A stretch of DNA of 64,000 nt from a virus. Its lineage: Duplodnaviria; Caudoviricetes. The notes under the pieces were generated by a model. It was not told where the DNA came from, searched no databases, and was given only the letters and a program-made list of their open reading frames with translations. The DNA is taken from the IMG/VR virus record IMGVR_UViG_3300036770_008730; one strand, 5' to 3'. Below are positions 837 to 40,609 of the stretch, in pieces (the stretch's first letter is position 1; each line of letters begins with the position of its first letter). The translations under genes were made by a program, and so were the position numbers.

Positions 837-1112
837 TTAATAGGAAGCTTCTATCTCAACTATTTTATTGGTTGAGTTTGACTTTTCTGAAATTCCTTTT
901 ATTCTTAATGTATGGTGATTTGGAAGCTTTACTGATGTGTCATAATACCATTTGTTACCAACCTTATATTGAAAGGAGTTACCAAGGAAATCATCTATAT
1001 CCCATTCTGTAGAATTAATTGGCACATCAATATTAATGATGTAAGTTTGTGGATTAGTTTTTAATCCACTTAAAAAAAGTTTTTTTAGTTCTTTGAATTT
1101 CAACATATCCAT
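837..1112 (-). CDS. hypothetical protein
   Basis: Open frame co-oriented with neighbours. Confidence 0.5.
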   Translation of the reverse strand: MDMLKFKELKKLFLSGLKTNPQTYIINIDVPINSTEWDIDDFLGNSFQYKVGNKWYYDTSVKLPNHHTLRIKGISEKSNSTNKIVEIEASY

Positions 1113-1644
1113 CAGGGTTAAATTGTTCTTTAGTTAGGTTACAAGTAAATTGATGTCCTTTATACTTGGCTATAAGTCCAGGATAAGACATCGAACTTCC
1201 ATTAAATTGTATATCTTTATGATCGGTAAGTTGTGATGCGGAAACTTTTATATTTAATTCCTCTTTAATTCCTCTTACACCAGCCACAGATGGTGATTCT
1301 CCAAATTTCATTTTCTCTGAAACAGAAGACAACATCTTTCTTTTTCTTACCCTACCATCATTGAATTCTTGTCTATCCTCAATGAGATGATAAATATTTT
1401 CTTCCTCATCTTTATAGAAAACTTCTACCCCAACAAATTCAATAATTCTATGAAGTGATTCTCCATTCTCTATTAACTGACATTCATTATTCACTAACTC
1501 CTCATATAGATCTTGTAAGTCTTTAGCCTTACCGGTTCCCCAACTTGAAATAGGTATTGAAAATTTTCGCAAGTAATTCTCTAGTTCCTCTACTGACTGA
1601 AAATCTTTTGATTTAAAGTCTTCAAATAGTTTTATAAAACGCAT
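1054..1644 (-). CDS. Nudix-like hydrolase
   Basis: Variant Nudix box GESPSVAGVRGIKEELNI; N-terminus MRFIKLFEDF. Confidence 0.6.
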   Translation of the reverse strand: MRFIKLFEDFKSKDFQSVEELENYLRKFSIPISSWGTGKAKDLQDLYEELVNNECQLIENGESLHRIIEFVGVEVFYKDEEENIYHLIEDRQEFNDGRVRKRKMLSSVSEKMKFGESPSVAGVRGIKEELNIKVSASQLTDHKDIQFNGSSMSYPGLIAKYKGHQFTCNLTKEQFNPDGYVEIQRTKKTFFKWIKN

Positions 1645-1648
1645 AGCA

Positions 1649-1658
1649 TATATATTAA
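1649..1658 (-). promoter_or_regulatory. putative late promoter TTAATATATA
   Basis: Recurrent motif 4 nt upstream of ATG at 1644. Confidence 0.55.
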
Positions 1659-1686
1659 ACTTATCATATTATTATTTAATAATAGT

Positions 1687-2370
1687 ATGAGGGAATCTTT
1701 CACTGAGTATAAAAAAACAATTGAATTAAATGTGATTAATTGTTCTTTCATATATGCCGGTGATGTTATTAACTCTAAAGATGAGTCTTTTCAACAAATA
1801 AAAAATACACCACTAACATCTCCTTCTTTCATAAGAAATTGTATCATTGACATCTATAACAAAAGTTTTCAAGAATTAATTTTAAGAGCCAAAGAGTTTG
1901 TTATAGCAGAAGAGTCATTAGTTGATAATGAGTTTTATAAATCCGACCTCTTAACAAAGATTAGAAATTTAGGAATTGATAATCATTATTGGTTTTTAAG
2001 TGAAAAGAAATCTTTTTTAATTGACACATTTTCAAATCAAACAGATAGAATTATGCCCAATTACTTTTATGAATCAAAAAAGTATGATGGGTTGAACTTA
2101 GATGTTTTGCACTGTCCACTTATTGTGGAAGATGAAGGCGAGACGATTGTTTATGTTACTGACAGACCAATTCAGAGTTTATGTTATGTAATTCAAAATA
2201 TGGACTACACAATAACTAAATGTGAAGAAGATGTTAAAGAACCACATCTAATGACATGGAAACATGAAATAAAATATCCTTTTTATAATTGCGATTATAA
2301 CTCATATAAAATTATTATCAAAAATATATCTCAGATTAGAAATCAAAAAATAAATGAATTACTTAAATGA
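1687..2370 (+). CDS. hypothetical protein with C-terminal RNQKINELL motif
   Basis: 227-aa ORF, ATGA overlap with next gene. Confidence 0.65.
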   Translation: MRESFTEYKKTIELNVINCSFIYAGDVINSKDESFQQIKNTPLTSPSFIRNCIIDIYNKSFQELILRAKEFVIAEESLVDNEFYKSDLLTKIRNLGIDNHYWFLSEKKSFLIDTFSNQTDRIMPNYFYESKKYDGLNLDVLHCPLIVEDEGETIVYVTDRPIQSLCYVIQNMDYTITKCEEDVKEPHLMTWKHEIKYPFYNCDYNSYKIIIKNISQIRNQKINELLK

Positions 2371-2744
2371 CAATTGATCTAAATGATATACCAATTGGAG
2401 TTGCTGAATCTCAATACCAACTAGATATATTAAAGTCTGGAAAAATTTATAAAGAATTACTTAAAATGAGTGAAAAAAAATATACTTGTATTATAGTTTC
2501 AATGCCGGTTTATAATGTTTTGGTGCACCATGATAAGTTTTATCAGAACCCATTCGATTCAATAGAATCAACTACTGAAGTGGGTATATTCTGTGGATAT
2601 AAAGTTTTTTTGGACCTGACTCTACAAGAAAATTTGATTCAACTCACTTATGATTTTCAAGAGAAGAGAGATAATGTTTTAGATAATCTTCTAGAAAATG
2701 AGGAAATAAAAAAAGACCTTAAAATTAAGGTCTTAAATTGTTAA
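2367..2744 (+). CDS. hypothetical protein
   Basis: 125-aa ORF coupled to previous gene; KRDNVLDNLL motif. Confidence 0.6.
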   Translation: MTIDLNDIPIGVAESQYQLDILKSGKIYKELLKMSEKKYTCIIVSMPVYNVLVHHDKFYQNPFDSIESTTEVGIFCGYKVFLDLTLQENLIQLTYDFQEKRDNVLDNLLENEEIKKDLKIKVLNC

Positions 2745-4236
2745 ATTTTTTGAAGTTTATAACTTTCTTTTCCGTTGTTGGTTTTATCACTTTACCATAT
2801 GGATCAAGTTTAGTCACCTGTTCTGTTGGAATAACCTTATAATCTTCTGGTTTATCTTGTTCTCTACTTTCACCCGCTTCGCCCCAAACCGTTTGTATAG
2901 GAAAATTAACACCTGAAAGATCGGTTATGATTTTATTTTTAAACATATCGATGAATCTAACTCCTTCAAAACCTTTACTGTTACATGTACCAAATATATT
3001 TGAAATAGAACCAATTCCACCGTGGCCTCCTGAAACAGTAATTTCATCTTGTCCGATTGAAGTATCTGGATCATAATAACCTAAATGCTGTTGGAAATTT
3101 TTTAATAACTCTGTCATATAAACTCCCAAATCATCAACTGTTTTACCATTCTTTAACACCGGTAGATTCTGAGTCTCAGTCATAGGTTTATAAGAACAAA
3201 CTTGAAGTGTTCCTCCATATTGGAGTAGAATAAATTTAGGTTCTTTTGATAATAGTCCGTTTTTGAAATCTGTTTCAATTATAGAACGAGCTCTTAACGC
3301 ATTAGCCCAAGTTCCAGTAGGAACAAATGCTAAATCACCAATCATTGTATAACCATCTAATCTAATTTTACCAGCTGATAAAAAGTCATTCATAAAGTCT
3401 TGATGTGATTGATAGTTCTTTTTAGCTCCACCTAACTTTCCTCTTGTTTTTTGTTGCATTTGATTCAATCTCCATTCGGAGTCAGAAATAAAGTCTTTTG
3501 ATTGACCTTTCATAGGTCCTGATGGAAACACATTATGTTCACCGTAAACAGTTTTCATCACATTGAAAATTGAATATATTGATGCATCTTTACAATTGTG
3601 AATAACTGATATAAGTGTTTGATGATCAGCTCTTTTTAAGAATTGATTAAAAGCTGCTGCGAATTCAAGTCTTTTATTTGGAGATTTTTTAATTTCAGAT
3701 AAATCAAAATCTAAAAGTCTTGACCAACTAACATTGTATTGTTGATACTTTGCAGCATCAATCATATCTATTACAGACAGAACTAACTCATCTTGTGGGA
3801 CTCCAAGTGATTGACAAATCGCTTCATAAGCTGAAGCTGTTTTTTTCTTTTGAACTGGAGAAGATTTATATTTCTCTAAATCTTCAGCACTGAATGATCC
3901 GTGATGATCTAAGTAATAGTCGATATATTGGTCTCTTTCATCACCTGGCATACTTGCAAAATCTACCACAACATTTATGAGTTTAGGATCTACTGATGTG
4001 TATTTCCAACCATCCATATAATTTAAGATACCATATTTCTCTATTGTAAAACCTTTATTAAGAAGATACTTCTTAACTTCGATTGCTGAAAAAATTCCAT
4101 CCATATCATCATGTGTATATAGAGCTACGACTTTTCCTTTTTTTCCTTTTCTCATCCAATATTCTTGATCTACTGGAAGTCTTGGTGATGCCTCTTCGTT
4201 GAGAGGCATAAAATTATTGAAGTTTCTTATTTTCAT
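2725..4236 (-). CDS. DHH-family phosphoesterase
   Basis: HDDMDGIFSA (motif I), VVVDF (II), LDHHG (DHH), C-terminal SGGHGG (DHHA1-like). Confidence 0.75.
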   Translation of the reverse strand: MKIRNFNNFMPLNEEASPRLPVDQEYWMRKGKKGKVVALYTHDDMDGIFSAIEVKKYLLNKGFTIEKYGILNYMDGWKYTSVDPKLINVVVDFASMPGDERDQYIDYYLDHHGSFSAEDLEKYKSSPVQKKKTASAYEAICQSLGVPQDELVLSVIDMIDAAKYQQYNVSWSRLLDFDLSEIKKSPNKRLEFAAAFNQFLKRADHQTLISVIHNCKDASIYSIFNVMKTVYGEHNVFPSGPMKGQSKDFISDSEWRLNQMQQKTRGKLGGAKKNYQSHQDFMNDFLSAGKIRLDGYTMIGDLAFVPTGTWANALRARSIIETDFKNGLLSKEPKFILLQYGGTLQVCSYKPMTETQNLPVLKNGKTVDDLGVYMTELLKNFQQHLGYYDPDTSIGQDEITVSGGHGGIGSISNIFGTCNSKGFEGVRFIDMFKNKIITDLSGVNFPIQTVWGEAGESREQDKPEDYKVIPTEQVTKLDPYGKVIKPTTEKKVINFKKFNNLRP

Positions 4237-4239
4237 ATC

Positions 4240-4644
4240 TTATATATTAATTTTACAGATGGAAATATTTATATGGTCAAGTTCTTTTCTAATATGATTT
4301 ATTTTCCAACCATAATCTTTCAATCTTAAACTTGATATGTTGATAATATCATTGAATTCATCTGAGTCAACTAATTGCTCTAAATCAAATTCCACCATTC
4401 TTTGACTCATATTTTGGTAATTCTTCTTTCCAATATTTACTGATATATATGGTTCTAAATCAAATTTTAAATTTGAATAATCTGATGACTTTGTTATAAG
4501 TTTTTCTGTGAATTTTACATTTATATAGTAATCTTTTTCTTCTAAATCATAAAACATATCCTTTATATCCTCAGGATAAAGACCATATTTTTCGAGATAA
4601 TCTATCTCTTCATTATTCTCAAAGAATGGTTTTAGATATTTCAT
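4240..4644 (-). CDS. hypothetical protein
   Basis: 134-aa ORF, N-terminus MKYLKPFFEN. Confidence 0.65.
   Translation of the reverse strand: MKYLKPFFENNEEIDYLEKYGLYPEDIKDMFYDLEEKDYYINVKFTEKLITKSSDYSNLKFDLEPYISVNIGKKNYQNMSQRMVEFDLEQLVDSDEFNDIINISSLRLKDYGWKINHIRKELDHINISICKINI
4241..4250 (-). promoter_or_regulatory. putative late promoter TTAATATATA
   Basis: Motif 4 nt upstream of ATG at 4236. Confidence 0.55.
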
Positions 4645-6563: not shown

Positions 6564-6573
6564 TTAATATATA
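6564..6573 (+). promoter_or_regulatory. putative late promoter TTAATATATA
   Basis: Motif upstream of the baseplate cluster start (6599). Confidence 0.55.
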
Positions 6574-20276: not shown

Positions 20277-20302
20277 AACCCACTCAATGAGTGGGTTTTT
20301 TA
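20277..20302 (+). terminator. intrinsic terminator
   Basis: aacccactc-aat-gagtgggtt followed by T-tract. Confidence 0.8.
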
Positions 20303-20325
20303 ATGCTAAATTAAATATATACCCT

Positions 20326-21015
20326 ATGAAATATTTAGTAGAGTGGAGAATTTTTGAATCAAAAGAAGATAAAAAACCAAGTAAGGACGTTGAAAATGAA
20401 ATAAAAAGATTCAAATCTAAATGGGGAATTGAACTTGACCAGAATTTCACATTGAGAGAAATAAAGGTCATATCTGAAGGTCTTTCTTATTATAATACTA
20501 AGTTTATAAAAAATCGTATAGATAGAATAATACGAAAAGATATGGGTGCTGTGAAAGGTAGATGGAAAAACACTGAAAAAAAGAAATGGATGTTTTTAAA
20601 TCCAAAAATTTTTAATTTCAAAAAAAGGTGGAAAAATGAAGATGTTGATATTCCGTATGCTGTGTTTACAGTAGTACATGAAACCGCACATTGTATAGAT
20701 TATTTGGAAAGAATTTCCTTTTCTAAGGAATGGCAGTCTTTATCAGGATTTAAAAAATGTGATATTCATGATAAAGTTCCGGATGGATATATTAGATACA
20801 TTGAAAGAAGACCTGGTAGAAAAGGTCCAAAAAAATCTGAGTGGATTCATAAAGAAGATTCAAACTTTTGTAGAAAATATAGTTCAAAAAATCCAAGAGA
20901 AGATTTTGCTGATTCACTAGCATTTACAATTTTAGGACTTTCTGAAAAAATGAAAGGTGAAGATGGTAAAGAAAAACTTAAAATAATTAAAAAATTATTA
21001 AAAAGGGCTGAGTAG
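20326..21015 (+). CDS. zincin-like metallopeptidase (HEXXH)
   Basis: VVHETAHCID plus downstream NPREDFADS; start revised to ATG 20326 because the track start lies inside the terminator. Confidence 0.65.
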   Translation: MKYLVEWRIFESKEDKKPSKDVENEIKRFKSKWGIELDQNFTLREIKVISEGLSYYNTKFIKNRIDRIIRKDMGAVKGRWKNTEKKKWMFLNPKIFNFKKRWKNEDVDIPYAVFTVVHETAHCIDYLERISFSKEWQSLSGFKKCDIHDKVPDGYIRYIERRPGRKGPKKSEWIHKEDSNFCRKYSSKNPREDFADSLAFTILGLSEKMKGEDGKEKLKIIKKLLKRAE

Positions 21016-21026: not shown

Positions 21027-21713
21027 CTAAAAATCTGTAAGATCAACAGCCTGAACAGTTTCTTTATTAAATAAAAAAACCTCAATTCCTCTTAATCCAC
21101 TAATCCATTGTTCTCTACGCTGACTTGGTAATTCTAATACGTTTTGGATAGCAATTGATATTTTTTCTTCAGGAGTATTATCATATATCACTGCATTCAT
21201 AGTTGATGCACCCAAATGCGTAAGAATTTTAATTTTGAAATTTGTTTTATATATCTTTAGTTTGTGATAGACATCTATAACATCCTGTATCAACTCATCG
21301 GTGTTTTGATATTTTAATCTTATATAGCTCTCATAGTAATATCCACCATCCCAAGACGGATAATCTTCAATATCTTCAGTTCTATCTGTAAATGGTAATA
21401 GACAATCCTTCATATCTGAGTAATCTATTTTTAATGAATAAGCATTGAAAAAGGATTCTTGTGATCCATCATCTACCATATCTTGATAGTATTGAACATA
21501 GTCTTCTGTAATCTTATCAATTAATTCATCTAAAGCTACCTTTGTTTCGGAACTAAAAATACAATTCCCAGTCATAGGGTCATCTGTTCTATTAGTTAAA
21601 ATGTGTTCTATGAGTGGATTGAATATTTGGTTCCAGTCTTCCGCATTAACAAGTGGGTGTTTAGTCCACCTTTCTTTTTTCTTTTCTAAGATAAGTTTAG
21701 AGAATTTCTTCAT
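21027..21713 (-). CDS. hypothetical protein
   Basis: 228 aa, N-terminus MKKFSKLILE, TTAATATATA at 21718-21727. Confidence 0.7.
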   Translation of the reverse strand: MKKFSKLILEKKKERWTKHPLVNAEDWNQIFNPLIEHILTNRTDDPMTGNCIFSSETKVALDELIDKITEDYVQYYQDMVDDGSQESFFNAYSLKIDYSDMKDCLLPFTDRTEDIEDYPSWDGGYYYESYIRLKYQNTDELIQDVIDVYHKLKIYKTNFKIKILTHLGASTMNAVIYDNTPEEKISIAIQNVLELPSQRREQWISGLRGIEVFLFNKETVQAVDLTDF

Positions 21714-22968: not shown

Positions 22969-23973
22969 ATGATAATTAAAAAATATACAGACTTCTTAAA
23001 AGAGGAATATTTACAAGGAAATTTCAAAGATTCCACAGGTTCTGATTATAAAGTATATCAGTTACTATACTACGCTTTTGATTGGGATGATAATATTCTT
23101 AGAATGCCAACTGAGATAATACTTGTTAATCAAGATGGAAATGAGGTTGGTATGTCCACAGAGGATTTTGCAAAATATAGAGATATTATAGGAAAAAGTC
23201 AATTTGAATATAACGGTCAAACTATCACCGGATATGCCAATGACGCCTTTAGATACTTTAGAGATGACGCCGATCCAGATATCTTTACTAAAGATGTTGA
23301 AAAAGCACTAAATGAAAAAAGATTTGCTAAGTCTTATAATGATTTTATTGAGTGTCTAACAACCGGGTCTCTTTTTGCAATCATCACTGCTCGTGGTCAT
23401 GAGCCATTACCTATGAGAAAAGGTATAGAGTTTATGATTAACAAATTAACACCTACTCAAAAAACAAGCATGATAGACCATCTAAAAATGTTCTCTCATC
23501 TATTTGATGAGCCAATTAAACCTGATGATATTTTGATAAAAGAGTATCTTGATAAGTGTGAATATATTGGAGTATCTTCACCATCAAGAGGAGGAAAGCC
23601 TGATAATCCTGAAAAGGCAAAAGAAGATGCTTTCTTTGGTTTTGTCGAAAAATGCAATACTTTTTCAAAAGAACTTGAAAACAAATTCAATAGTGATCCA
23701 GAGACTCTTAAAAGAGGGGAAAGGTGGAAAGTTATTGCTAAAATAGGATTCTCTGATGATGATGCAAAAAACATCAAACATTTAGATGATGTTGTGAGAG
23801 AATTGAAAAATGAAACATACTCGAATGTAAAAGAATTTTACATGAAAGATACTGGTAAAGAAGATTTACAAACAAATGTTTATACAAAATATCAAGAGGG
23901 TGAACCTAATCCAACATCAGAATCAGTTGTTAGAAAATTTGACAGATTCTTAAAAAAAAAGCTAACTCGTTAA
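22969..23973 (+). CDS. HAD-superfamily phosphatase-like protein (possibly extended to 24191 by -1 frameshift)
   Basis: FDWDDN (motif I), IITARGH (II), IGFSDDD (IV); see frameshift finding. Confidence 0.7.
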   Translation: MIIKKYTDFLKEEYLQGNFKDSTGSDYKVYQLLYYAFDWDDNILRMPTEIILVNQDGNEVGMSTEDFAKYRDIIGKSQFEYNGQTITGYANDAFRYFRDDADPDIFTKDVEKALNEKRFAKSYNDFIECLTTGSLFAIITARGHEPLPMRKGIEFMINKLTPTQKTSMIDHLKMFSHLFDEPIKPDDILIKEYLDKCEYIGVSSPSRGGKPDNPEKAKEDAFFGFVEKCNTFSKELENKFNSDPETLKRGERWKVIAKIGFSDDDAKNIKHLDDVVRELKNETYSNVKEFYMKDTGKEDLQTNVYTKYQEGEPNPTSESVVRKFDRFLKKKLTR

Positions 23974-24413: not shown

Positions 24414-26315
24414 ATGAAAGTGTTTAAATATTTTGATTTTTTATTAGAAGCAACTAGAGTTCAAAAAACAATGAGACTTCACTATTCAGAGAAGTTTAGA
24501 AGTCTTCTACAAAAGATGCAAAAAAATAATGATTTCGCATCACTACTTTTAGCAGCCGAAGACTCAAATCAAATCTCAGATATCTACACATTAATTGATG
24601 TGACTGATAAAAATGATATGATTTCTTGCATACAAGTAAATCGTATTTTAAGATCGAATCCCGATACTAAAACCTATACAAATGATGATGTTTATTTTTT
24701 GAATAGATCAATCACCAACGATGAAAAAAATGAGTTTTGGAAGAATGGCAGAACTAATATGGGAATTGGAAAATGGATGAGAAGGGTTGTTGTTGATTTA
24801 TATAAATCACCATCAGTCCTAAATGATAAAAAACTGGAAGATTTTGTCAATCTCTATAAATCTACTTTTGATGGTATTAATAATGTTAAAGAAGAAAGAT
24901 TTCAACTAGTAGAAGGTGACGAAATTAGAAAATGGTATCATGCAGATAACTATTTTGAACTAAAAGGTCAATTAGGAAATTCTTGCATGAGATATACAAG
25001 ATGTCAAGATTACTTAGATATTTATGTTAAAAATCCAGAAGTTTGCAAATTGTTAATTTACAAAAGTGAAGAAGACCCTGAAAAGATTATTGGACGAGCT
25101 CTTATCTGGAATATTAAACCAACACCGAAAGGTATTACAAAATACATGGATAGAATTTATACCATCGCTGATTCTGATAGGTTACTATTTCAAGATTGGG
25201 CTACTGAAAATGGCGTAAATTATGGATACTCTGGTGTCAAATATATTCAACTTAATAATGTTAATTTCAACAAATATCCATATATGGACACATTTATCTA
25301 TCTAAATAAAGAAACAAAGTCTTTAACAAATGACGATGGTGTTTGGCCTGGACAAAGCTATATAAAAATACAAGACACAAACGGTGGATATACTGACGAT
25401 GATAGCGTTTGGTCAGAATATCACGGTGATTATATATCAAGAGAAAATGCTGTTTATTGTGACTACAGTGACGATTGGATTCACATTGATGATGCTAATT
25501 ATCTTGACTATAAGGATGTATATGTTGGTCCTAATGTAGATACCGCTTATTCGGAATATCACGGAGAGACCTTTTTAACGGATGATGTTGTTTGGTCAGA
25601 ATGTATGAATGATAATCTTTATCCAGAATATTCAAATGTTGTTGAAATGAAAACAAGTTACCAAGGTGATACAGATTGGGTTATTAGCACTCGAACAGAT
25701 CTTTGTTTGAAAGTTGGTGATGATTATTATAGTAGAAAAGATTATATAAAAGATCCATATAGTGATGAATATCATTTCTTAGATGAAAAAGAAATGAAAA
25801 CTTATGAAGATAGATTCAAAGAAAGTTGGGGTGATAAACTTTATGATAAGTTACTAAAAGACATTATTCCTGAAGGAATGAGAAATGAAGAATTCAATAT
25901 TTTAAGAGAATGGGTAGTTTCTGAAATTAAAAAGGATATATTAGAGGAAAACTATGATATACATTTAATTTCTGAGATTGAAAATAATGAAATATTTAGA
26001 CGAAACATCAATTTCTTCTATGCTGCACAACGGGATAAAGAAATAAAACCTACTGCAAAAGATTTGGTGCCGTTAATTATTGCCTGTAAAATAAAACCAG
26101 TGAGTGTGCGAGGATATGTTAGTACTGGATTATATAAAGAATTACACACAATGGCTACAAGTATGATAAATCCCGAAGATAAAGATTTAGTAAAGAAGTA
26201 TAAATTTTATGCAGAAAATAGATTTATCTCAATCATCAATAGATTGGCCTTATCTATAAGTTCCGAATCACTTGGATTAGATTTGTATAAGAAGTTCTTA
26301 TTTATTAATAGTTAA
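24414..26315 (+). CDS. hypothetical protein, SCM/GRALIW/MDRIYT family (paralog 1)
   Basis: GQLGNSCMRY, IIGRALIW, YMDRIYT, YPYMDTF; W/YSExH repeats; N-terminus MKVFKYFDFLLEA. Confidence 0.75.
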   Translation: MKVFKYFDFLLEATRVQKTMRLHYSEKFRSLLQKMQKNNDFASLLLAAEDSNQISDIYTLIDVTDKNDMISCIQVNRILRSNPDTKTYTNDDVYFLNRSITNDEKNEFWKNGRTNMGIGKWMRRVVVDLYKSPSVLNDKKLEDFVNLYKSTFDGINNVKEERFQLVEGDEIRKWYHADNYFELKGQLGNSCMRYTRCQDYLDIYVKNPEVCKLLIYKSEEDPEKIIGRALIWNIKPTPKGITKYMDRIYTIADSDRLLFQDWATENGVNYGYSGVKYIQLNNVNFNKYPYMDTFIYLNKETKSLTNDDGVWPGQSYIKIQDTNGGYTDDDSVWSEYHGDYISRENAVYCDYSDDWIHIDDANYLDYKDVYVGPNVDTAYSEYHGETFLTDDVVWSECMNDNLYPEYSNVVEMKTSYQGDTDWVISTRTDLCLKVGDDYYSRKDYIKDPYSDEYHFLDEKEMKTYEDRFKESWGDKLYDKLLKDIIPEGMRNEEFNILREWVVSEIKKDILEENYDIHLISEIENNEIFRRNINFFYAAQRDKEIKPTAKDLVPLIIACKIKPVSVRGYVSTGLYKELHTMATSMINPEDKDLVKKYKFYAENRFISIINRLALSISSESLGLDLYKKFLFINS

Positions 26316-28713: not shown

Positions 28714-28742
28714 AAAAACCCTCTAAAAGAGGGTTTTTTTTA
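28714..28742. terminator. bidirectional intrinsic terminator
   Basis: aaaaaccctct-aaa-agagggttttt between convergent genes. Confidence 0.8.
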
Positions 28743-29252
28743 TTTTTTATACTTTTGAAATTTTCTTGTATTTCTGTAGCTCTTAGATTCTTTTTGCATT
28801 GTCATCTCTAAGTCCTCAACTGCCTGTTGGTCAGACACTTCTCTCTCGTCTGAAATTTCTTCTGTAGATTCACTTGCTAATAAATAGTCAGCAACTTCTT
28901 GAGCGGTTTTAAACTTCTTTTTATCAACATGAAATACACCTTCACCGGTCTCGTCATTAAATGTCTCAGATGGAAATAGTATTGTTTTTTCTTTGTAAAT
29001 AACTGAATTATTTGACACTGTTGATCCTGGTAATAATTCTGATAAAGTATTTAAATTGTCAGAATAAACATCACCTCCTTCTTGTTCTGTTCCTAACTCC
29101 TCATCTTCAATTGGACCTTCTGCTTTTGGTAATTCACCTTCCAATTGTTCAATCTCAACATCTTCTTCGGATGACATAGGAGCAACATTTGCCGGTGGAA
29201 CCATATCTTCATTAATTTTATTCTTTACGAATTGATTATATCTTTTAATCAT
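28740..29252 (-). CDS. acidic hypothetical protein
   Basis: N-terminus MIKRYNQFVKNKINED; ATG 29252 preferred. Confidence 0.65.
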   Translation of the reverse strand: MIKRYNQFVKNKINEDMVPPANVAPMSSEEDVEIEQLEGELPKAEGPIEDEELGTEQEGGDVYSDNLNTLSELLPGSTVSNNSVIYKEKTILFPSETFNDETGEGVFHVDKKKFKTAQEVADYLLASESTEEISDEREVSDQQAVEDLEMTMQKESKSYRNTRKFQKYKK

Positions 29253-29285: not shown

Positions 29286-29783
29286 TTAATTTTCAGTTTT
29301 TCCACTCAATTCACCAACTACATAATCTAAGAAGGAATCAAGTTCATATTCTAAACCATTACAAAACTCGAAAACATCATATTCATATCCTTCTTCATCT
29401 TTAGTTAGTGAATAGAAATCAGGAACGACTTGACCATTGTCATATGAAATTATACATCCTTCAAGTCTTCCCTCTAATTTTTTACCATTTGGCCAAGTTA
29501 GGTCTGGAACATAAAGAACTCCTTTGTAATGTTTTTCATCACCGAAATCTTCTATCTCACTTAGTTCAAATTTGAAATAACCGTGATCATCTTCAAAAAC
29601 AGATTCCATTTCTTTTTTTGCTAAATTAACATGATGTAATTCCTGTTGACCTGATTTATGAGAGTCTAAAAATTCTTTTTCCTCTTTTGATAAAGATGAC
29701 ATACCAAACTTGGAAATCTTATCAAGTAAGTCATCCAATCGTTGATTGGAAGTGTATCCTTCATATCTCATTAAATGTTTCAT
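29286..29783 (-). CDS. hypothetical protein with DUF6576-like motif
   Basis: LDDLLDKISKFGMSSLSKEEKEFL; N-terminus MKHLMRYEG. Confidence 0.65.
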   Translation of the reverse strand: MKHLMRYEGYTSNQRLDDLLDKISKFGMSSLSKEEKEFLDSHKSGQQELHHVNLAKKEMESVFEDDHGYFKFELSEIEDFGDEKHYKGVLYVPDLTWPNGKKLEGRLEGCIISYDNGQVVPDFYSLTKDEEGYEYDVFEFCNGLEYELDSFLDYVVGELSGKTEN

Positions 29784-30430: not shown

Positions 30431-31090
30431 ATGATATTAAAATTTAAACTTTTTGAAGCTCAACAAAGACATTACGGTAAAGGAACTTTATTCTCTGATA
30501 ATCACAGAATACCAAATCTACCAGAACAGTGTGCAATGATTGATATTGATGGTGTATCACTATCAGGAAATCAAATAAATGCTATAATCGAGGATAAATT
30601 CAAATTCGATTCGAAAGCATTAGGTAATCCTTTAGAAGGAGAAGGAACTTGGCAAAGAAAAAAATTAGTAGATATCTCCAAAACACTGAGATGTCCTTTA
30701 ATTTTGAATGAGTTATCAACAAAAACTTATATCAAGTTTGATAATAATTTACAACCAGAAAAAATAGATTCACTTGATGAATACTCAGTTATTGAAACTG
30801 CTAATAGAGTATTTGTAGAAATTAGATTTGGTAGACCAAAGGCAATAATGTTTAGAATTGAGGATATAAAAGTTGATGATTTGCCAAATTCGGATTTATT
30901 TAAAGTCGCTTTACAACTATCTCAGAAATTAAATTGTGAACTCTACATCATAAGTGATGACTATAAACCTGGAAAAATATATATCAGAAAATACTTTTCA
31001 AAAGATGGTCAAAAGTCACCAACTTATGTAATAGATTGCGAAAATCCAATAACATGGATTACTGTTTACAAGCAATTAAATCTACTTTAA
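30431..31090 (+). CDS. hypothetical protein, possible PD-(D/E)XK fold
   Basis: IDIDG...IIEDK spacing; TTAATATATA at 30417-30426; N-terminus MILKFKLFEA. Confidence 0.5.
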   Translation: MILKFKLFEAQQRHYGKGTLFSDNHRIPNLPEQCAMIDIDGVSLSGNQINAIIEDKFKFDSKALGNPLEGEGTWQRKKLVDISKTLRCPLILNELSTKTYIKFDNNLQPEKIDSLDEYSVIETANRVFVEIRFGRPKAIMFRIEDIKVDDLPNSDLFKVALQLSQKLNCELYIISDDYKPGKIYIRKYFSKDGQKSPTYVIDCENPITWITVYKQLNLL

Positions 31091-33229: not shown

Positions 33230-33233
33230 TTAA

Positions 33234-33241
33234 CAAATATA
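33234..33241 (-). promoter_or_regulatory. Bacteroidota sigma70-type -7 box (TAnnTTTG)
   Basis: TATATTTG on minus strand 4 nt upstream of ATG 33229. Confidence 0.45.
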
Positions 33242-33248
33242 TGGAAAA

Positions 33249-34034: not shown

Positions 34035-34093
34035 GATACTTTTTTATGAATGATTTGTTTAAATAATGAATTACTACTTTAATATATACTGAT

Positions 34094-35026
34094 ATGGTAA
34101 AAAGATGGCATGAATTTATAAGAGAATTTGTTGAAAACTCTAATAATATTATTGATATTAAAATGCAAGAGTTGAGAGATTTAATTGATAGTTTCTCAAA
34201 TGGCCAAAACATCATATATGAATGGGAAAATATGAATGACCATCAGTTAGATGTTGCATTTAGTTACGAAGGTTTATCTATTAAATATGAATTTGATATA
34301 GACCAAATGAAAGTTACTAAAATCTCAGGAGATGTTGTTGATTTTACAACTGAAGTGGAGTCAATTGATGAAGGACTTGATGTTATTGAAAAGGACATAC
34401 ATTTTGTATTAGGTGTTTCTGAAAGTTACAGTCCAGAATATGATTCATCTTTGTCAGAAGAAGAGGTTAGAGAAGTGGTGAGAAAAATTAGGAATTTTGC
34501 AAAAATTGAAGTTATAGACAATACAGCAGATGTTGAAGGATTAGTAGAAGAGTTACAAAAATCTTTATCGAACTATGATAAAGAAACTATTGATTTAGTT
34601 ATCGACACTACTCTATTCGGTGATGATTCTGATAATTGGGAAGATTGGGCGATTGAACAAATCATTCAAACTGGTGATAAAATAATGAGTAAACATGGAA
34701 CAGAACCAACTCAAATTTTAAATGCTTATGATAACTCATTTCAGTATTTACGAAAATATTTTAGATGGGAAGATGATGTTTTTGAATCAAAGAGTGGAAG
34801 ACCTAGATCTCAAAGATATAAAGGTCGTAAAATACCAGGTAAGTATCTGACTAAAAATCCAAAAGCGATGAAAAGAGAAATTGATACTTACAGAGGTAAA
34901 AAAGAATATAAAAAAGATTGGGATGCTGATTATAAATCTGGTAAAGGTGGTAAAGGTAAAAGAGTAAAGACAAAAAAATCAGCGGCTACTCTAGCCTATG
35001 AGAAAAAATTTAAAAATAAAGAATAA
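34094..35026 (+). CDS. hypothetical protein with basic C-terminal domain
   Basis: TTAATATATA at 34079-34088; N-terminus MVKRWHEFIRE; acidic body then FES followed by basic tail. Confidence 0.7.
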   Translation: MVKRWHEFIREFVENSNNIIDIKMQELRDLIDSFSNGQNIIYEWENMNDHQLDVAFSYEGLSIKYEFDIDQMKVTKISGDVVDFTTEVESIDEGLDVIEKDIHFVLGVSESYSPEYDSSLSEEEVREVVRKIRNFAKIEVIDNTADVEGLVEELQKSLSNYDKETIDLVIDTTLFGDDSDNWEDWAIEQIIQTGDKIMSKHGTEPTQILNAYDNSFQYLRKYFRWEDDVFESKSGRPRSQRYKGRKIPGKYLTKNPKAMKREIDTYRGKKEYKKDWDADYKSGKGGKGKRVKTKKSAATLAYEKKFKNKE

Positions 35027-35028
35027 CT

Positions 35029-35427
35029 ATGGAACATTTATTAAGTTTTGAAGATCTATTTGAAGATTATTCTAAGTATTTAGAATCAGAGGATTTTGAA
35101 TTACAGGATGACTTTGACACCGAGATGGTTGAAGAAGATTTAGAAGAAAATGAAGAACTTTATGAAAAAAAGAAAAGTGGTGTAACTGCTTCACTAAAAA
35201 AGAAATCTAAGGCATCTGGAATTCCTATGGGAATTTTAAGAAAAGTATTTTCAAAAGGAATGCAAGCTTGGAACGCAGGTCATAGACCTGGTGTTGCACA
35301 ACATCAGTGGGGAATGGGTAGAGTAAATAGCTTTATTACCGGTGCGGGTGGAGCTAGAAAATCAGATGCTAAACTTTGGGCACAAGCTAAGAAAGCTAAA
35401 GCAAGAAAAAAGAAAAAGAAAAAATGA
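35029..35427 (+). CDS. DUF5824-like protein
   Basis: SGIPMGILRKVF.KG.QAW..GHRPG..QHQWG.GRVNSF; poly-Lys tail. Confidence 0.6.
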   Translation: MEHLLSFEDLFEDYSKYLESEDFELQDDFDTEMVEEDLEENEELYEKKKSGVTASLKKKSKASGIPMGILRKVFSKGMQAWNAGHRPGVAQHQWGMGRVNSFITGAGGARKSDAKLWAQAKKAKARKKKKKK

Positions 35428-35912
35428 AATACGTAAAGTTATTTGAAGAATTCAGCGCTGTAAAAAAATCATCGAAAAAAGAATCTTTGAAGAAAGGTAA
35501 AATTGAAGTTAAAACCTCAACAATACCAAATGCTGGTAAAGGTTTATTCGCCTTACAAGATTTCTCTAAGGGTGATGAGATCTGTGAATTTACTGGAAAA
35601 GAAGTAAGTAAAGAAGAAATTAAAAAACTTACAGGAACAAGAGCTGAGTATTTGATTGGAAAGGATGATGGATCAACTGTGGATGTCTATAACTCAAAGA
35701 GTCCAGCAAAGTATTCAAATGACCACGATGGATATTTAAAAGCTACAAAGAAGACTGGCTTTGAAAAGAAGAACAACTGTGAAATTATGGAACTAGATAA
35801 TGGTGAGTTGTGGCTTATAGCTACCAAAAAAATCAAAGAAGGTGATGAAATCTTCTGTTCTTATGGTTCAAGTTATTGGACAAATTGGTTAAAAAGTAAT
35901 AAAGAAAAATAA
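35424..35912 (+). CDS. SET-domain protein (putative lysine methyltransferase)
   Basis: STIPNAGKGLFA..DF.KGD.I.EFTG, PAKYSNDH, IATKKIKEGDEIFCSYG..YW. Confidence 0.88.
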   Translation: MKYVKLFEEFSAVKKSSKKESLKKGKIEVKTSTIPNAGKGLFALQDFSKGDEICEFTGKEVSKEEIKKLTGTRAEYLIGKDDGSTVDVYNSKSPAKYSNDHDGYLKATKKTGFEKKNNCEIMELDNGELWLIATKKIKEGDEIFCSYGSSYWTNWLKSNKEK

Positions 35913-35916
35913 TAAC

Positions 35917-36318: not shown

Positions 36319-36389
36319 AAAATTTGTATTTAGTAAAGAAAATAAGTTGTAGAAAATAATATATAAGTAGTAAAATTATAAAATTTAAT

Positions 36390-37640
36390 ATGATTAAGAA
36401 ATATACAGGATTCCTATTAGAAAACTTTAGATACAATGCTACTCTTATATTAGAAGCTCAATTATCAGCAACTGGTGGTTTTTTAGATAAACTCGATACT
36501 ATCTCAAAAGAAAAAGGAATGGCTGGTGAAATTGCAAAAAATATAAAAGATTTTATAGAGAAAGAGGGTTGGGTAAGTGATGATAACATTAAACAAAATT
36601 ACTTTGATACCACTGAAAAAGAAGATATGATTTCTTTTTTAATGCAAAGTAAGTTACCAAAGGATTGGGATGAAGAAGTTGACCCTTCTCTTCCATACAA
36701 CACAAAAGGTAGAACAGAAGTAAAAGTTTCCAAGATAATCAAATACATCGTCACTCTTATGGATGCCGAAGGTGAGTGGAATAGTGTTCCACCAAAAGAT
36801 AAAGATATAGAGGCATTTGTAAATGCATTTAAAGCAACAAAGGCATCTACTGACTTTAAGTTCAAAGAAATAAAAGGTGATGAAATTGCTAAGTATTACA
36901 ATCAAAAGAAATATTTCAATTCATCAGGAACACTTGGTGGATCTTGCATGGCTGATGAATCAAAAGGAACATTTAAGATTTATAGTCAAAATGAAACTAA
37001 AGTTAAGTTGTTGGTCTTTATAGATGAAAAACAAGATAAAATATCTGGAAGAGCGATTCTTTGGAAACTGAGTAAATCACCATGTGATGCAAATTGGTTT
37101 ATGGATAGAGTATATACAAATAGAGACTCTGACTTTATTAAGTTCAAAAATTATGCTGAAGAAAAGGGTTATTTATACAAATCTATTATGAATAGTCATA
37201 CCAGTGAAAATGTAAAGTTTAGATACAAAGGTTCGGATGTTCAAGGTATAGTAAAAGTAAAATTAGACGGTTCAGCAAAAAGTTATCCTTTTATCGACAC
37301 AATGTGTTTCCTAAATAAAGATAAAACTGAGTTAAGTAATGTTCCATCAGTAGGAAGCTTTTTTCTTCATTCAGTGTCTGGTGATTGTGACCACTGTAGT
37401 GATTGTGATGGGAAGATGTTTATTTGTGACGACTATCAGTGTGGATATAATAATGGTGAGATTGATTGTGATGAATGTAATTCTTCAGGAATGGTTGATG
37501 GAAAAAAATGTACCAGTTGTAAGGGTACTGGTTATATAAAATGTGATCATCCAAATACTGAAATTTGCAATGATTGTTGTGATGGATTAATGACTTTAGG
37601 TGTCAGAACAGTTGAAGACCTTAAGAAGATATCTAAGTAA
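36390..37640 (+). CDS. hypothetical protein, SCM/GRAILW/MDRVYT family (paralog 2) with C-terminal CxxCxGxG zinc finger
   Basis: GTLGGSCM, ISGRAILW, FMDRVYT, YPFIDTM; CDECNSSG..CTSCKGTG; TAATATATA 36357-36365. Confidence 0.75.
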   Translation: MIKKYTGFLLENFRYNATLILEAQLSATGGFLDKLDTISKEKGMAGEIAKNIKDFIEKEGWVSDDNIKQNYFDTTEKEDMISFLMQSKLPKDWDEEVDPSLPYNTKGRTEVKVSKIIKYIVTLMDAEGEWNSVPPKDKDIEAFVNAFKATKASTDFKFKEIKGDEIAKYYNQKKYFNSSGTLGGSCMADESKGTFKIYSQNETKVKLLVFIDEKQDKISGRAILWKLSKSPCDANWFMDRVYTNRDSDFIKFKNYAEEKGYLYKSIMNSHTSENVKFRYKGSDVQGIVKVKLDGSAKSYPFIDTMCFLNKDKTELSNVPSVGSFFLHSVSGDCDHCSDCDGKMFICDDYQCGYNNGEIDCDECNSSGMVDGKKCTSCKGTGYIKCDHPNTEICNDCCDGLMTLGVRTVEDLKKISK

Positions 37641-37642
37641 TT

Positions 37643-38143
37643 TTATCTACCCAAATAGTTCATTAATTCTATCATATTCTTAATTGAGTATGAAAAACTC
37701 TCTAGGTTCTTAACCGTGTCTCTAAGAAATTCAATATAAGATTCGATTAATTCTAAACTTCTATCATTTTCAGCCAAGTGAGCATCGATTAAGATTGCCT
37801 TTTCACCCATATTTGTTTTTACACCAAATCCAGTAGCATAGAAAATAAATTTATCTTGTCTAATTTTTTTAATTTTTGTAGTTTCTTTACTTCTCTTATT
37901 TAAGAAGAAGTTAATTTGTTCGTTTATTTGCTGTCTAAAAGACAGAGCTATTGCCTGAGCATCCAAAACATGCTTTGAATTTGAGGGATTAGATAAATCC
38001 TGTGATAAAACCTTAAAAACAGGTTCTACATTTTTGTTCCAGTCAGCGCGTTTTTCGTTGAAAAACTCTTCTAATTTATCATTAGTTTCTTTTGCCTTTT
38101 GTATGCGGTCTAATTCTTCCTGATTATATAGATTCATCGTCAA
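37643..38143 (-). CDS. uvsY: UvsY-like recombination mediator
   Basis: Helical protein; C-terminus IEFLRDTVKNLESFSYSIKNMIE resembles the UvsY end. Confidence 0.5.
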   Translation of the reverse strand: MTMNLYNQEELDRIQKAKETNDKLEEFFNEKRADWNKNVEPVFKVLSQDLSNPSNSKHVLDAQAIALSFRQQINEQINFFLNKRSKETTKIKKIRQDKFIFYATGFGVKTNMGEKAILIDAHLAENDRSLELIESYIEFLRDTVKNLESFSYSIKNMIELMNYLGR

Positions 38144-38525
38144 TTATTTTTTTCATTAAGTATTCTCTATGTAAGTTTTTATTATCACAACTTATTAGAG
38201 TTTTTTCTATTAGGGATTTTAATTTTGATTCAATTTCTGAATTTAGTATTTCATCGAGTATTGTAGTCCAAAAATCAACTAAGTAATGGTCTTCTATCAC
38301 AATCGGTAAATCCTCATCATTATTTATTTCGATACATTTATTTCTATTGTCAATTATGATTGACATCTGCGGCCTTAAAAACGGATTACCATTTCTATCA
38401 ATTAGATCAGAAAAAAATTCAATATAGAAATGTTTGAATCCATATTTCATCTTTTTGTGAAGATTTATTCTTTCATCTTCTCGGTGAGAAATAAGAAATT
38501 CAATAAAATTGTTAAGTTCTTTCAT
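38124..38525 (-). CDS. hypothetical protein
   Basis: 133 aa; ends LHREYLMKKIIDDESI. Confidence 0.6.
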   Translation of the reverse strand: MKELNNFIEFLISHREDERINLHKKMKYGFKHFYIEFFSDLIDRNGNPFLRPQMSIIIDNRNKCIEINNDEDLPIVIEDHYLVDFWTTILDEILNSEIESKLKSLIEKTLISCDNKNLHREYLMKKIIDDESI

Positions 38526-38572
38526 AGTTTTTTTATGAAAAAAAGTTGTTTTTGTTTGAATGTCTATAAAAC

Positions 38573-38600
38573 AAAAAATCCCTAAAATATAGGGATTTTA
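38573..38600 (-). terminator. intrinsic terminator
   Basis: aaaatcccta-aaata-tagggatttt hairpin just downstream of 38608..39216. Confidence 0.75.
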
Positions 38601-38607
38601 ATTTCTA

Positions 38608-39216
38608 TTACATAGAAGGCTGATTCTCATCATCGTCATCATCTCCGACTTCTTCATCTTCCCAATTAGAATCATCATCAACCTCCTCTTCTTCATATTC
38701 ATCTTCAGGAAGTTCTCCTGTCTCATACTCATCAAATTCTTCTTCATACTCTGCATCAAATTCATTATCTTCTTCATCATCTTCATGATCGTGTGATGGA
38801 GATCCGTGATTCATTAAGAAATTATGAACGTGTTCTAGGTTTTCACAAGAAACCGATATGTGGTCTGAAGCCCAATCATGTTCTTTGAGTATCTCATCAA
38901 CTTCCTCTTGTGATAAATTCATAATAGCATCAATATATCTTTGCATTGTTTGAAGATTTGCAAAGAACATATAGTTACTTGTTGTTTGGTGTTCATTAAA
39001 GCTTTTAAGTCTTTTAGATTCATTTTGTTTCATGAAATCTGGTTCCTCAGAAAGATTATAAGGATTTTCTTGAGCTTCTTGTTTTTCATATTCAGTAAAC
39101 TCACCTGTTGGATTATTAACATCATATTCACCAGAATGTGTTTCCGGTTTATCGTCGGAATAAACTTCTGTTTCTTCTGGTAAGTTAAAATGTTCAAATT
39201 TTTTAATATTTTTCAT
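38608..39216 (-). CDS. acidic hypothetical protein
   Basis: N-terminus MKNIKKFEHF, internal KRLKSFNE, YMFFANL..HDWASDH core, Asp/Glu tail; TAATATATA 39240-39248. Confidence 0.7.
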   Translation of the reverse strand: MKNIKKFEHFNLPEETEVYSDDKPETHSGEYDVNNPTGEFTEYEKQEAQENPYNLSEEPDFMKQNESKRLKSFNEHQTTSNYMFFANLQTMQRYIDAIMNLSQEEVDEILKEHDWASDHISVSCENLEHVHNFLMNHGSPSHDHEDDEEDNEFDAEYEEEFDEYETGELPEDEYEEEEVDDDSNWEDEEVGDDDDDENQPSM

Positions 39217-39259
39217 AGTTAATTCGTTATTTATTAGGTTATATATTAGAATTGAAAAG

Positions 39260-40609
39260 TTATTTTAATACAGTAATAACTTCTGGATACCACTCTATAG
39301 CTTCTTTATTCTTTTCAGGATAGTTTAAAACTGAAAGTGCATATCTGATAGCATTCAGTCTTCCAATCTTTTTATCATTTGAATTTACAACGACCCAAGG
39401 ACATTTAGAACTGGATGTTCTGTTAAACATTTGATTTTTATAATTTGTGATTAAGTCATACTTATCTACAACTCTAGCATCATTAGGTGAGAATTTCCAA
39501 AATTTAAGTGGGTTAGTTTGTCTTAATTTGAATCTTTCTTTTTGTTTTTCTTCAGTAATTGAGAACCAAAACTTGATAAGTATTATTCCGGAATCGACCA
39601 AACTTTCTTCCCACGGAAGAACTTTCTCCATAAAGTCTTTATATTCTTCTTCTGTGCAATATCCATTTACTGGTTCAACAACAGCTCTATTATACCAACT
39701 TCTATCGAAGTAAACTATTTCTCCTGGATTTGGTAAATTCCTTTCATATCTTGAAAACCAATTTTTTCTTTCTTCTTCTGTTGGTATTCCCAAACCAGCA
39801 ACAACTCTTGCAACACCAGGTATTGCATTTAACATAAATCTTTTAATCGAAGATCCTTTGCCAGCGGAATCTCTACCTTCAAAAATTATGGCTACACGTT
39901 GTTTTTTATAACCAGGAATTGGTTCAAATCTGTATTTTTGTGTGGTGTCCATACCATCAACTTCTCTTAAAAACTTATGTCTTGTTCCTTCACCTGGAGT
40001 AGTATTTTTTCCAAGTTTTTCTTGATTTTCTTTCCAAGCTTTTATTTTCGATTGATATGCGTCATTAGCATCTGAAGTTTTAATCCTCTTTCCACCTTTT
40101 ACCCAACATTGAAGTTTTATCAACTCATCTTGAAGTTCTTCTTCTTCTGGTTGATAAACAGAACCTCTTATCAAAGAACTTTCTCCTTCTTCCGAGTCGA
40201 AATGTTCAGAGTCTTCTCCTCTAATTTGACCTGATTCAATTGATTCAAATCTTTCATCTAAGCTTTCTATGAAATTATCAAATTCTAATCGGATTAATTT
40301 CTTAGTATCTTTTCTTTTTAACTCTAGCAATTGATGGATTTTTATCAAGAATGTTTTGACATTCAAATCTCTTATTAGTTCTTCAGTAAATTCATTTGTA
40401 AGCTCTCTTATAGCAGTATTAAGATTAAAAAAGTCATCTGCTTCATAGCTAACTCCTCCACCTAATTTGTCTAACTTGATGTTTACTAATATAGATTCTT
40501 TATATTCTTGTAATCTATCAGTTAAGTTATATTTTATTTGTTGAAGATTCTCCTTAGAAAGGTTATTTAGTTCTTCATTTATAAACTTTAAATAATCTAA
40601 AATTTTCAT
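39260..40609 (-). CDS. ppk2: polyphosphate kinase 2 with N-terminal extension and internal insertion
   Basis: IIFEGRDSAGKG (Walker A), YFDRSWYNR (Walker B), IKFWFSI, WKFSPND, PW.VV.SNDKK.GRLNAIR. Confidence 0.93.
   Translation of the reverse strand: MKILDYLKFINEELNNLSKENLQQIKYNLTDRLQEYKESILVNIKLDKLGGGVSYEADDFFNLNTAIRELTNEFTEELIRDLNVKTFLIKIHQLLELKRKDTKKLIRLEFDNFIESLDERFESIESGQIRGEDSEHFDSEEGESSLIRGSVYQPEEEELQDELIKLQCWVKGGKRIKTSDANDAYQSKIKAWKENQEKLGKNTTPGEGTRHKFLREVDGMDTTQKYRFEPIPGYKKQRVAIIFEGRDSAGKGSSIKRFMLNAIPGVARVVAGLGIPTEEERKNWFSRYERNLPNPGEIVYFDRSWYNRAVVEPVNGYCTEEEYKDFMEKVLPWEESLVDSGIILIKFWFSITEEKQKERFKLRQTNPLKFWKFSPNDARVVDKYDLITNYKNQMFNRTSSSKCPWVVVNSNDKKIGRLNAIRYALSVLNYPEKNKEAIEWYPEVITVLK

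Follow-up and report, generated by a model that had tools for sequence, protein, structure and literature searches.

The internal proteins of phage T4 begin with a capsid-targeting sequence (CTS), reportedly treated by Mullaney and Black in 1996. Here, we describe an N-terminal peptide ('the tag') that is shared by many otherwise unrelated proteins in a 64,000-nucleotide stretch of viral DNA (hereafter the window; IMG/VR record IMGVR_UViG_3300036770_008730; Duplodnaviria, Caudoviricetes) and in related genomes. The closest database relatives of the window are the complete genomes LR745206.1 (635 kb) and LR756502.1 (642 kb) of uncultivated 'huge phages'. An earlier note, made from the letters of the window alone, had listed 16 such proteins and proposed that the peptide loads them into the phage head. 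In the T4 CTS, MKTYQEFIAE, mutagenesis has assigned targeting to residues 4 and 7 and processing to residues 8 and 10 (PMC9026906). The CTS carried by T4's internal proteins IPII/IPIII, IPI and Alt has been reviewed (PMC3012670, PMC9026906). The conserved core of the tag, Ar-x-x-F-[IL]-x-E (Ar, aromatic residue), repeats the Y, F, I and E of the T4 CTS at the same spacing. Like the CTS, the tag is an N-terminal peptide of 10–15 residues (here up to 19) that heads unrelated, fast-evolving accessory proteins. As in T4, there are a capsid protein of the gp23 family and a maturation protease of the S77 type, both found in relatives of the window, and the tagged genes are driven like structural genes. 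Unlike T4, which has a handful of such genes, the huge phages have about 150 tagged genes per genome. The commoner huge-phage form is three residues longer in front (M-K-[YH]-[LI]-K) than the T4 CTS and often ends in F-E. The putative huge-phage cargo, known here from sequence alone, is mostly acidic and has full-size enzymes among it, and the putative scaffold is fused to the protease and has repeats that bear the heptad of the tag, again unlike T4.

The giant phages phiKZ, 201phi2-1 and SPN3US are similar to the present case; they have a gp21-like protease, which cleaves many of their head proteins after Glu (PMC5694885). About 8–20 of their proteins are processed, and a CTS-like role has been proposed for the propeptides of their ejection and inner-body proteins (PMC5694885). 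Unlike the huge-phage tag, these propeptides are mostly longer than 100 residues, carry the motif (S/A/G)-x-E and have no short tag in common (PMC5694885). In phage P1, the anti-defence enzymes of the Dar system travel in the head and are injected together with the DNA (PMC9024508, PMC12810830). Loading of Dar and of polyvalent proteins differs from the huge-phage tag in relying on specific partner proteins and large fused proteins, with no short shared tag. Polyvalent proteins are reportedly the subject of Iyer et al. (2017).

Outside phages, the cargo-loading peptides of encapsulins and the encapsulation peptides of bacterial microcompartments are short, terminal and usually helical, and they send unrelated enzymes inside a protein shell; the encapsulin shell has the HK97-type fold of phage capsids. 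Unlike the proposed action of the tag, these peptides bind the shell protein directly, stay uncut and serve few cargo types each. We found no description of the tag in a full-text literature search for tag strings and for huge phages together with capsid targeting.

A tag shared by unrelated huge-phage proteins

We found all 16 N-termini of the earlier note at the starts and on the strands given there. With internal 15-residue windows of the same proteins as background, the pattern [FYW]..F within residues 2–16 is present in 16 of the 65 first-ATG open reading frames (ORFs) of the window (3.4 expected, P 2e-7), and [KR].?[FYW]..F is present in 11 of them (0.67 expected, P 7e-11). An independent test was made with two profiles that were trained on LR745206.1 alone and then applied to the window ORFs. 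Twelve of the 65 ORFs score above 6 bits, compared with 0.10 expected from internal positions, and nine score above 9 bits (0.05 expected). The replication, ClpP, baseplate and fibre ORFs, which the note had described as lacking the peptide, all score negative. The observation made in the note is confirmed. The twelve robust ORFs start at 1644, 4644, 22969, 24414, 29252, 29783, 34094, 35029, 35424, 36390, 39216 and 40609. The remaining four genes of the list are less secure: those starting at 20326 and 21713 are borderline, and those at 4236 and 30431 fail the fixed-register profiles, retaining just Ar-x-x-F and then [L]-x-E.

The forms of the tag were defined in LR745206.1, where 923 ORFs were called by a fixed first-ATG rule and the N-termini were described by unsupervised mixture models. 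A position-anchored mixture yields one class of about 118 ORFs with M-K-[YH]-[LI]-[KR]-x-[FY]-[ENK]-x-F-E, and a second form, M-I-K-K-[YFW]-x-x-F-[IL]-x-E, is found among the remaining ORFs. Both profiles contain an aromatic pair at positions i and i+3, namely Ar7 (F 0.53, Y 0.38) with F10 in the commoner form and Ar5 with F8 in the second. The mixture has a log-likelihood of 1123 for the 923 N-termini, compared with 551 ± 2 when residues 2–14 are shuffled within each protein. Enrichment over shuffled N-termini is therefore evident, in this case in a relative of the window, and since shuffling halves the log-likelihood, the order of the residues counts, beyond their composition. In total, 149 of the 923 ORFs (16%) score above 6 bits, and the median length of the tagged proteins is 171 residues. 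All four sampled huge-phage genomes carry the tag, in local variants such as M-K-Y-I-K-E-Y-E-E-F-L-N-E, in which the two forms are blended.

The tag is strictly N-terminal and modular, and selection on it is at the level of the peptide, not of the DNA. The Lys codons AAA and AAG stand at 62:23 within the tag and at 74:26 genome-wide, and Leu is encoded in the tag by five codons in roughly the genome-wide proportions. This agreement of synonymous codon use indicates that selection acts on the peptide. His (CAT/CAC) accounts for 28% of position 3 in LR745206.1. The modular character is seen in the tag preceding a Lys/Ser linker in a SET protein and a long extension in a PPK2 protein, in the unrelated bodies, and in an untagged homolog in phage phi38:1. 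The note had called the tagged proteins unrelated, which is correct for nearly all of them; the exception is the pair starting at 24414 and 36390, which is paralogous (E 1e-25). No other pair among 17 tagged bodies, compared pairwise, is similar at E 0.01 or better. Among the tagged bodies in LR745206.1 are DHH combined with a winged helix, a fusion of a 2H/Acb1-like phosphoesterase and an RNase T-type exonuclease, an RNA ligase of the Rnl1 type and a nucleotidyltransferase of the poly(A)-polymerase family (tRNA-type).

The tagged proteins of LR745206.1 are more acidic overall, and residues 14–40, behind the tag, are 21% Asp/Glu compared with 14% in other proteins (P 6e-19). The tags have no hydrophobic core of 10–15 residues behind a basic N-region, which would mark a Sec or lipoprotein signal peptide. 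Unlike such signals, they alternate charged and aromatic residues and are followed by the Asp/Glu-rich stretch. Near the end of the tag, [LIVMF]-x-E closing at residues 7–16 is found in 115 of 149 tags and in 158 of 750 untagged ORFs; in 65%, the P1' residue is small. Phe occupies P3 in 45 cases, and K-F-E stands in several tags.

The tag occurs in viruses only. For this search, a single DNA pattern with 24 specified bases was used for the commonest form. It matches 36 loci in IMG/VR, nearly all of them huge-phage fragments (CheckV completeness 4–36%), and the tagged share of a locus reaches 12 of 21 genes. In 596 Gb of prokaryote genomes, there is one match, in a spurious ORF of 10 codons.

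The window is syntenic with positions 103–155 kb of LR745206.1. Among the genes compared, core genes flanking the tagged ones are mostly 70–86% identical between the two. Eight of the 16 tagged window genes have no ortholog in this syntenic genome; the others are 30–67% identical to their orthologs, which retain the tag. The tagged genes appear from these comparisons to be a fast-changing accessory set.

The note had also suggested that internal copies of the peptide could be extra processing sites. This did not stand: 15 internal positions of the window proteome score above 6 bits, which is about the background rate. One of these 15 matches lies at residue 68 of the protein encoded at 38608..39216, where K-R-L-K-S-F-N-E scores 11.3 bits without a Met of its own, soon after an internal Met. 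This stretch may be a leftover from the fusion of two tagged genes, or it may be due to chance.

The head module of the relatives

We found a gp23-family major capsid protein in the relatives (PF07068, 89–96 bits). Its N-terminus, KKWSPVLE, resembles the cleaved N-terminal segment of T4 gp23 (NKWKPLLE). The capsid gene lies directly downstream of an ORF of about 700 residues (LR745206.1 198546-200669; also in LR756502.1; LR756501.1 73913-76336; LR756504.1 185342-187636). The first 250 residues or so of this ORF match the head maturation protease PHROG 207 (E 3e-30), and Pfam Peptidase_S77 (PF03420, the T4 gp21 family) is matched with up to 43.5 bits in eight contigs. A phmmer search of PDB sequences with the protease domain returned noise alone (E >0.1). 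The rest of the ORF consists of 11–14 tandem repeats of 14 residues, an acidic region and a C-terminal domain, so that the whole looks like a protease fused to a scaffold. The scaffold-like repeat, N-I-x-Y-S-E-Y-[IL]-A-E-N-L-D-K, is coiled-coil-like, and each copy contains an (L/I)-x-E site of the T4 type.

The repeats share a heptad with the tag, [FYW]..[FYW][ILV].E (Ar-x-x-Ar-[ILV]-x-E). In LR745206.1, this heptad occurs at a rate of 3e-4 per internal position and is present at 26 N-termini, compared with 4.9 expected. The protease-scaffold ORF has 11 copies, the most in the proteome, and the next ORF has three. The heptad is found 11–14 times in the protease-scaffold repeats of four relatives, and in proteome-wide counts for three relatives this ORF ranks first every time. 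The chance of finding the heptad within a 14-residue unit is about 0.4%. In T4, the heptad is found in the IPII and IPIII tags and in the gp23 maturation site FGSFLTE. In a comparison across diverged clades, LR756501.1 and LR756504.1 conserve the tag consensus and the scaffold repeat alike, and LR756500.1 has a more degenerate form of each, which speaks neither for nor against joint change of the two. The link between tag and scaffold repeats is suggestive. It points to the possibility that T4-type tags act by joining the scaffold as an extra repeat.

Promoters of the tagged genes

We then investigated the upstream regions for a box of the TAATATATA type (T[AT]ATATATA, counted up to 60 nt upstream), which the earlier note had seen before most of the tagged genes and had taken as a sign of late synthesis. 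In LR745206.1, capsid, protease, portal-like, baseplate and fibre genes all have the box, 19–40 nt upstream; for the baseplate and fibre genes of the window, the distance is 19–28 nt. In LR745206.1, it precedes 71 of 149 tagged and 113 of 774 untagged ORFs (odds ratio 5.3, P 2e-17). The reverse holds for the host-type box TAnnTTTG of the Bacteroidota, which precedes 5 of 149 tagged and 103 of 774 untagged ORFs (odds ratio 0.23, P 2e-4). In LR756504.1, 22 of 28 tagged and 42 of 309 untagged ORFs have the TAATATATA-type box (P 7e-13), and the enrichment is weaker in LR756500.1. The host-type box precedes no tagged gene in LR756504.1, LR756500.1 or LR756501.1. Since the box is shared with structural genes and the host-type box is avoided, the tagged genes seem to be driven like structural genes. 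Thus, the five-fold enrichment bears out the note, and 'late' applies to the box by its association with structural genes. If RNA-repair and nucleotide enzymes are not carried with the particle, such a structural-type promoter would be an odd one for them. Separate genes of the window have the TAnnTTTG box, for example those at 26563(-), 33229(-) and 46733(-), before which it stands.

The gap between box and ATG falls into two discrete classes, 4–6 nt and 16–35 nt. The short gap is found mostly in tagged and small genes; the long one, with an A-rich leader, is found in structural genes. In LR745206.1, 46 of the 71 box-bearing tagged genes and 35 untagged genes have a gap of 4–6 nt, so that their mRNA is probably leaderless or near-leaderless. 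In the window, short-spacing boxes lie 4 nt before the ATG of the genes starting at 1644 (box 1649-1657), 4236 (4241-4249), 21713 (21718-21726) and 30431 (30418-30426), and 5 nt before that of the genes at 34094 (34080-34088) and 40609 (40615-40623). Long-spacing boxes are located at 6565-6573, 11325-11333, 48490-48498, 56294-56302 and 60427-60435.

Proposed loading into the phage head and alternative roles

Head loading by a T4-CTS-like tag, as the earlier note proposed, is the best-supported explanation in view of the head module, the four CTS positions and the shared box, and its scale would be far larger than the note envisaged. We consider it fairly probable that the shared N-terminus is a T4-type capsid-targeting propeptide, greatly expanded in this clade. 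In the proposed mechanism, tagged proteins would be expressed, like those of the structural genes, from TAATATATA-type promoters. The aromatic pair at i and i+3 (Ar-x-x-F) would dock the protein on the prohead scaffolding core, where the scaffold, in the relatives fused to the maturation protease, bears the same heptad, Y-x-x-Y-[IL]-A-E, in its 14-residue repeats. The S77 (T4 gp21-like) protease would cut after the following Glu, at [LIF]-x-E, and the mature protein would be freed within the head and ejected with the DNA into the next host. We infer scaffold docking, cleavage, encapsidation and ejection from these features. The cargo would include the PPK2, SET, Nudix-, HAD- and DHH-like proteins of the window, and the Acb1-like 2H phosphoesterase with its exonuclease, the Rnl1-type RNA ligase and the tRNA-type nucleotidyltransferase of LR745206.1. 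We put forward a bolder version only tentatively: about 150 proteins per genome, in phages of 460–735 kb, might be loaded by a tag that mimics the scaffold repeat and then be cleaved, making up the largest known pre-made proteome. RNA-repair and nucleotide-signal enzymes, polyphosphate kinase and SET proteins could in that case act before any phage transcription.

Several points weigh against head loading. Classical T4 internal proteins are basic, whereas the tagged proteins average acidic, and RNA ligase and CCA-type nucleotidyltransferase are cytoplasmic in known phages. The evidence on the head module comes from the genomes of relatives, which are 40–86% identical to the window, and the 'late' label of the box is given by association with structural genes. 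In LR756501.1, the enrichment of the box at tagged genes is not significant. The reduced heptad was picked after the repeats had been seen, and the scaffold repeats are not picked out when the full tag profile is run against the internal positions of the 923 LR745206.1 proteins. In the commoner form, many tags close with K-F-E or F-E and have no aliphatic P3. When the huge-phage profile is applied to 272 T4 ORFs, IPII and IPIII rank 4–5 with just 4.0 bits; the resemblance to the T4 CTS therefore lies in the four key positions, not in the overall sequence. Finally, about 150 cargo species, 16% of the proteome, are far beyond known cases, which makes the claim more interesting yet harder to believe for each tagged protein. 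SPN3US, for comparison, has about 50 head proteins, of which eight are processed (PMC5694885).

The alternative that survives best, though we regard it as rather unlikely, is that the tag is an address read late by a phage partner for a purpose other than head loading. It could serve docking on another part of the virion or on an assembly factor, sorting to an intracellular compartment or condensate, or timed turnover by the phage ClpP and a host unfoldase. A tag that is N-terminal, modular, selected at the peptide level and restricted to viruses would fit any of these, and the acidic stretch behind it (21% against 14% Asp/Glu) agrees with them as well. An intracellular role would more easily accommodate 149 tagged proteins among 923 and the presence of cytoplasm-type enzymes, and turnover gains from a ClpP gene that adjoins tagged genes. 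However, this alternative leaves unexplained the position-for-position match with the T4 CTS determinants, the heptad in the protease-scaffold repeats and in the T4 gp23 cleavage site, and the use of structural-type rather than host-type promoters for counter-defence-type enzymes. To our knowledge, no ClpX-type recognition motif resembles the tag.

Far less likely is a feature of the mRNA or of translation in near-leaderless late transcripts, such as an A/T-rich 5' end, an initial transcribed sequence or a recombination cassette. The box does end 4–6 nt from the ATG in 46 of the 71 boxed tagged genes, and the preferred residues (K, Y, L, I, F and N) have A/T-rich codons. We rank this explanation low because the codon data speak against it: synonymous codons are used in the tag as genome-wide, and His reaches 28% at position 3. 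The order of the residues matters, about half of the tagged genes lack a box in the 60 nt upstream, many tagged genes lie inside operons, and the 35 untagged genes with the short spacing do without the tag. Chance, acting on low-complexity N-termini of a proteome encoded at 30% G+C, and common descent from one diverged paralogous family are effectively refuted, even if Lys is generally common at position 2 and the 24414/36390 pair is paralogous, by the shuffling control, by 12 ORFs against 0.1 expected with profiles from another genome, and by the pairwise comparison of the bodies, in which well-defined unrelated folds (PPK2, SET, DUF5824 and DUF6576) stand among 17 bodies with no other similarity.

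If head loading is true, a simple sequence rule would name the injected proteome across the clade, with more than 100 proteins per genome, most of them of unassigned function and many resembling counter-defence or RNA-repair enzymes. It would help account for part of these very large genomes, and it would provide a list of candidate anti-defence proteins and, for the packaging of foreign proteins in phage particles, a second capsid-address tag that is naturally diversified. Should the tag serve another role, it is still an undescribed sorting signal on a sixth of the proteome.

The T4 genome contains a further peptide of this kind. Gene 61.1 (NC_000866.4 18966-19130) encodes gp61.1, a hypothetical protein of 54 residues that begins MKTFKEFIKED and resembles the T4 CTS. 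With the huge-phage profile, it tops T4 at 10.5 bits (rank 1 of 272). This protein could be an unrecognised head-targeted one.

Tagged genes of the window

The body assignments of the earlier note are firm for two proteins. In the product of the MKYVKLFE gene (35424..35912, +; 19.4 bits), a Lys/Ser linker leads from the tag to a SET methyltransferase domain (E 4e-11), which starts at residue 38. The protein tagged MKILDYLKFINE (39260..40609, -; 16.0 bits) has a 235-residue N-terminal extension followed by a PPK2 polyphosphate kinase domain (E 1.6e-67). Other assignments came out weaker. The DHH assignment of the loosely tagged MKIRNFNNFMPLNE gene (2725..4236, -) and the zincin assignment of the MKYLVEWRIFE gene (20326..21015, +) each correspond to a Pfam match of 18 bits, under the cut-off (Peptidase_Mx1 in the latter). 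The tag of the latter is borderline (5.1 bits), and its start is an internal ATG of a longer ORF, 20287..21015. The Nudix assignment of the MRFIKLFE gene (1054..1644, -; 14.4 bits) is a lead given by language-model and structure look-alikes alone, and the same kind of evidence stands behind the HAD-phosphatase-like body of the MIIKKYTDFLKE gene (22969..23973, +; 19.5 bits). Pfam at a relaxed threshold gave no Nudix and no HAD match, and PHROGs searched with nine tagged window proteins gave no family. The MIIKKYTDFLKE tag is of the T4-like form, and the ortholog is 38% identical with a tag of 24.7 bits. A 50-codon ORF further downstream (24039-24191, +) matches residues 305–340 of the relative's HAD-like ortholog with 58% identity, suggesting that the C-terminal end of the HAD-like gene has become detached by a frameshift or stop.

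Two tagged genes belong to the paralogous, multi-copy family. These are the MKVFKYFDFLLE gene (24414..26315, +; 8.9 bits; box 24396-24404) and the MIKKYTGFLLE gene (36390..37640, +; 16.2 bits; box 36357-36365), the latter with a Cys-rich C-terminus. The family has a domain with G-G-S-C-M ... G-R-A-I-L-W and occurs in 7–15 places per huge-phage genome (LR756501.1, LR745206.1). In Cellulophaga podoviruses, there is one copy, which is untagged (phi38:1 gp037). Searches of Pfam and PHROG with this family gave no matches.

Two further proteins carry domains of unknown function (DUFs). In the MKHLMRYE protein (29286..29783, -; 16.5 bits), DUF6576 (E 1.4e-8) lies immediately behind the tag, and the protein tagged MEHLLSFEDLFE (35029..35427, +; 8.3 bits) has DUF5824 (E 9e-15) and a lysine-rich tail. 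Acidic bodies are found behind the MIKRYNQFVKNKINE tag (28740..29252, -; 17.4 bits; box 29273-29281, 20 nt before the ATG), whose ortholog is 36% identical with a tag of 26 bits, and behind MKNIKKFE (38608..39216, -; 11.5 bits; box 39240-39248), where the body is very acidic. The MVKRWHEFIRE protein (34094..35026, +; 7.9 bits) has a basic C-terminal tail, and its ortholog has a tag of 29.3 bits. The MKYLKPFFE gene (4240..4644, -; 18.4 bits) lies within an operon, has no box of its own and encodes an unassigned body; its ortholog is 30% identical and retains the tag at 18.2 bits. MKKFSKLILE (21027..21713, -) is borderline at 4.3 bits. MILKFKLFE (30431..31090, +), which fits the tag loosely, retains Ar-x-x-F and L-F-E. 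A weak candidate absent from the earlier list, MKELNNFIEF (38124..38525, -), scores 3.5 bits, and its ortholog scores 8.1 bits.

Other features of the window

The window has a G+C content of 30% and encodes a baseplate hub, a protein with a C39-like peptidase, long fibre proteins, a UvsW-like helicase, ClpP, part of a family-B DNA polymerase and many small ORFs without assigned function. Its remoter relatives are LR756501.1/LR756503.1 (735 kb), LR756504.1 (636 kb) and LR756500.1 (462 kb), and the clade probably comprises huge phages infecting Bacteroidota. DNA nearly identical to window positions 33000-42000 is contained in subsurface and freshwater metagenomes of several independent studies, indicating that the phage lineage is widespread. 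The same region was present in none of the RNA runs checked.

The family-B DNA polymerase ORF (31087-32520, -) is just 477 residues long, and its match to the Pfam profile is partial; thus, the polymerase seems to be divided among separate genes. Adjoining the ClpP gene (21737-22519, -), an ORF at 22518-22967 (+) encodes a 149-residue protein with an extremely acidic, E/D-rich repeat (unit E-M-P-E-E-D-E-L) and a Lys-rich tail. It has a box with long spacing (19 nt) upstream, and conservation in the relative covers the first 45 residues. This product could be a scaffold-like or DNA-mimic protein.

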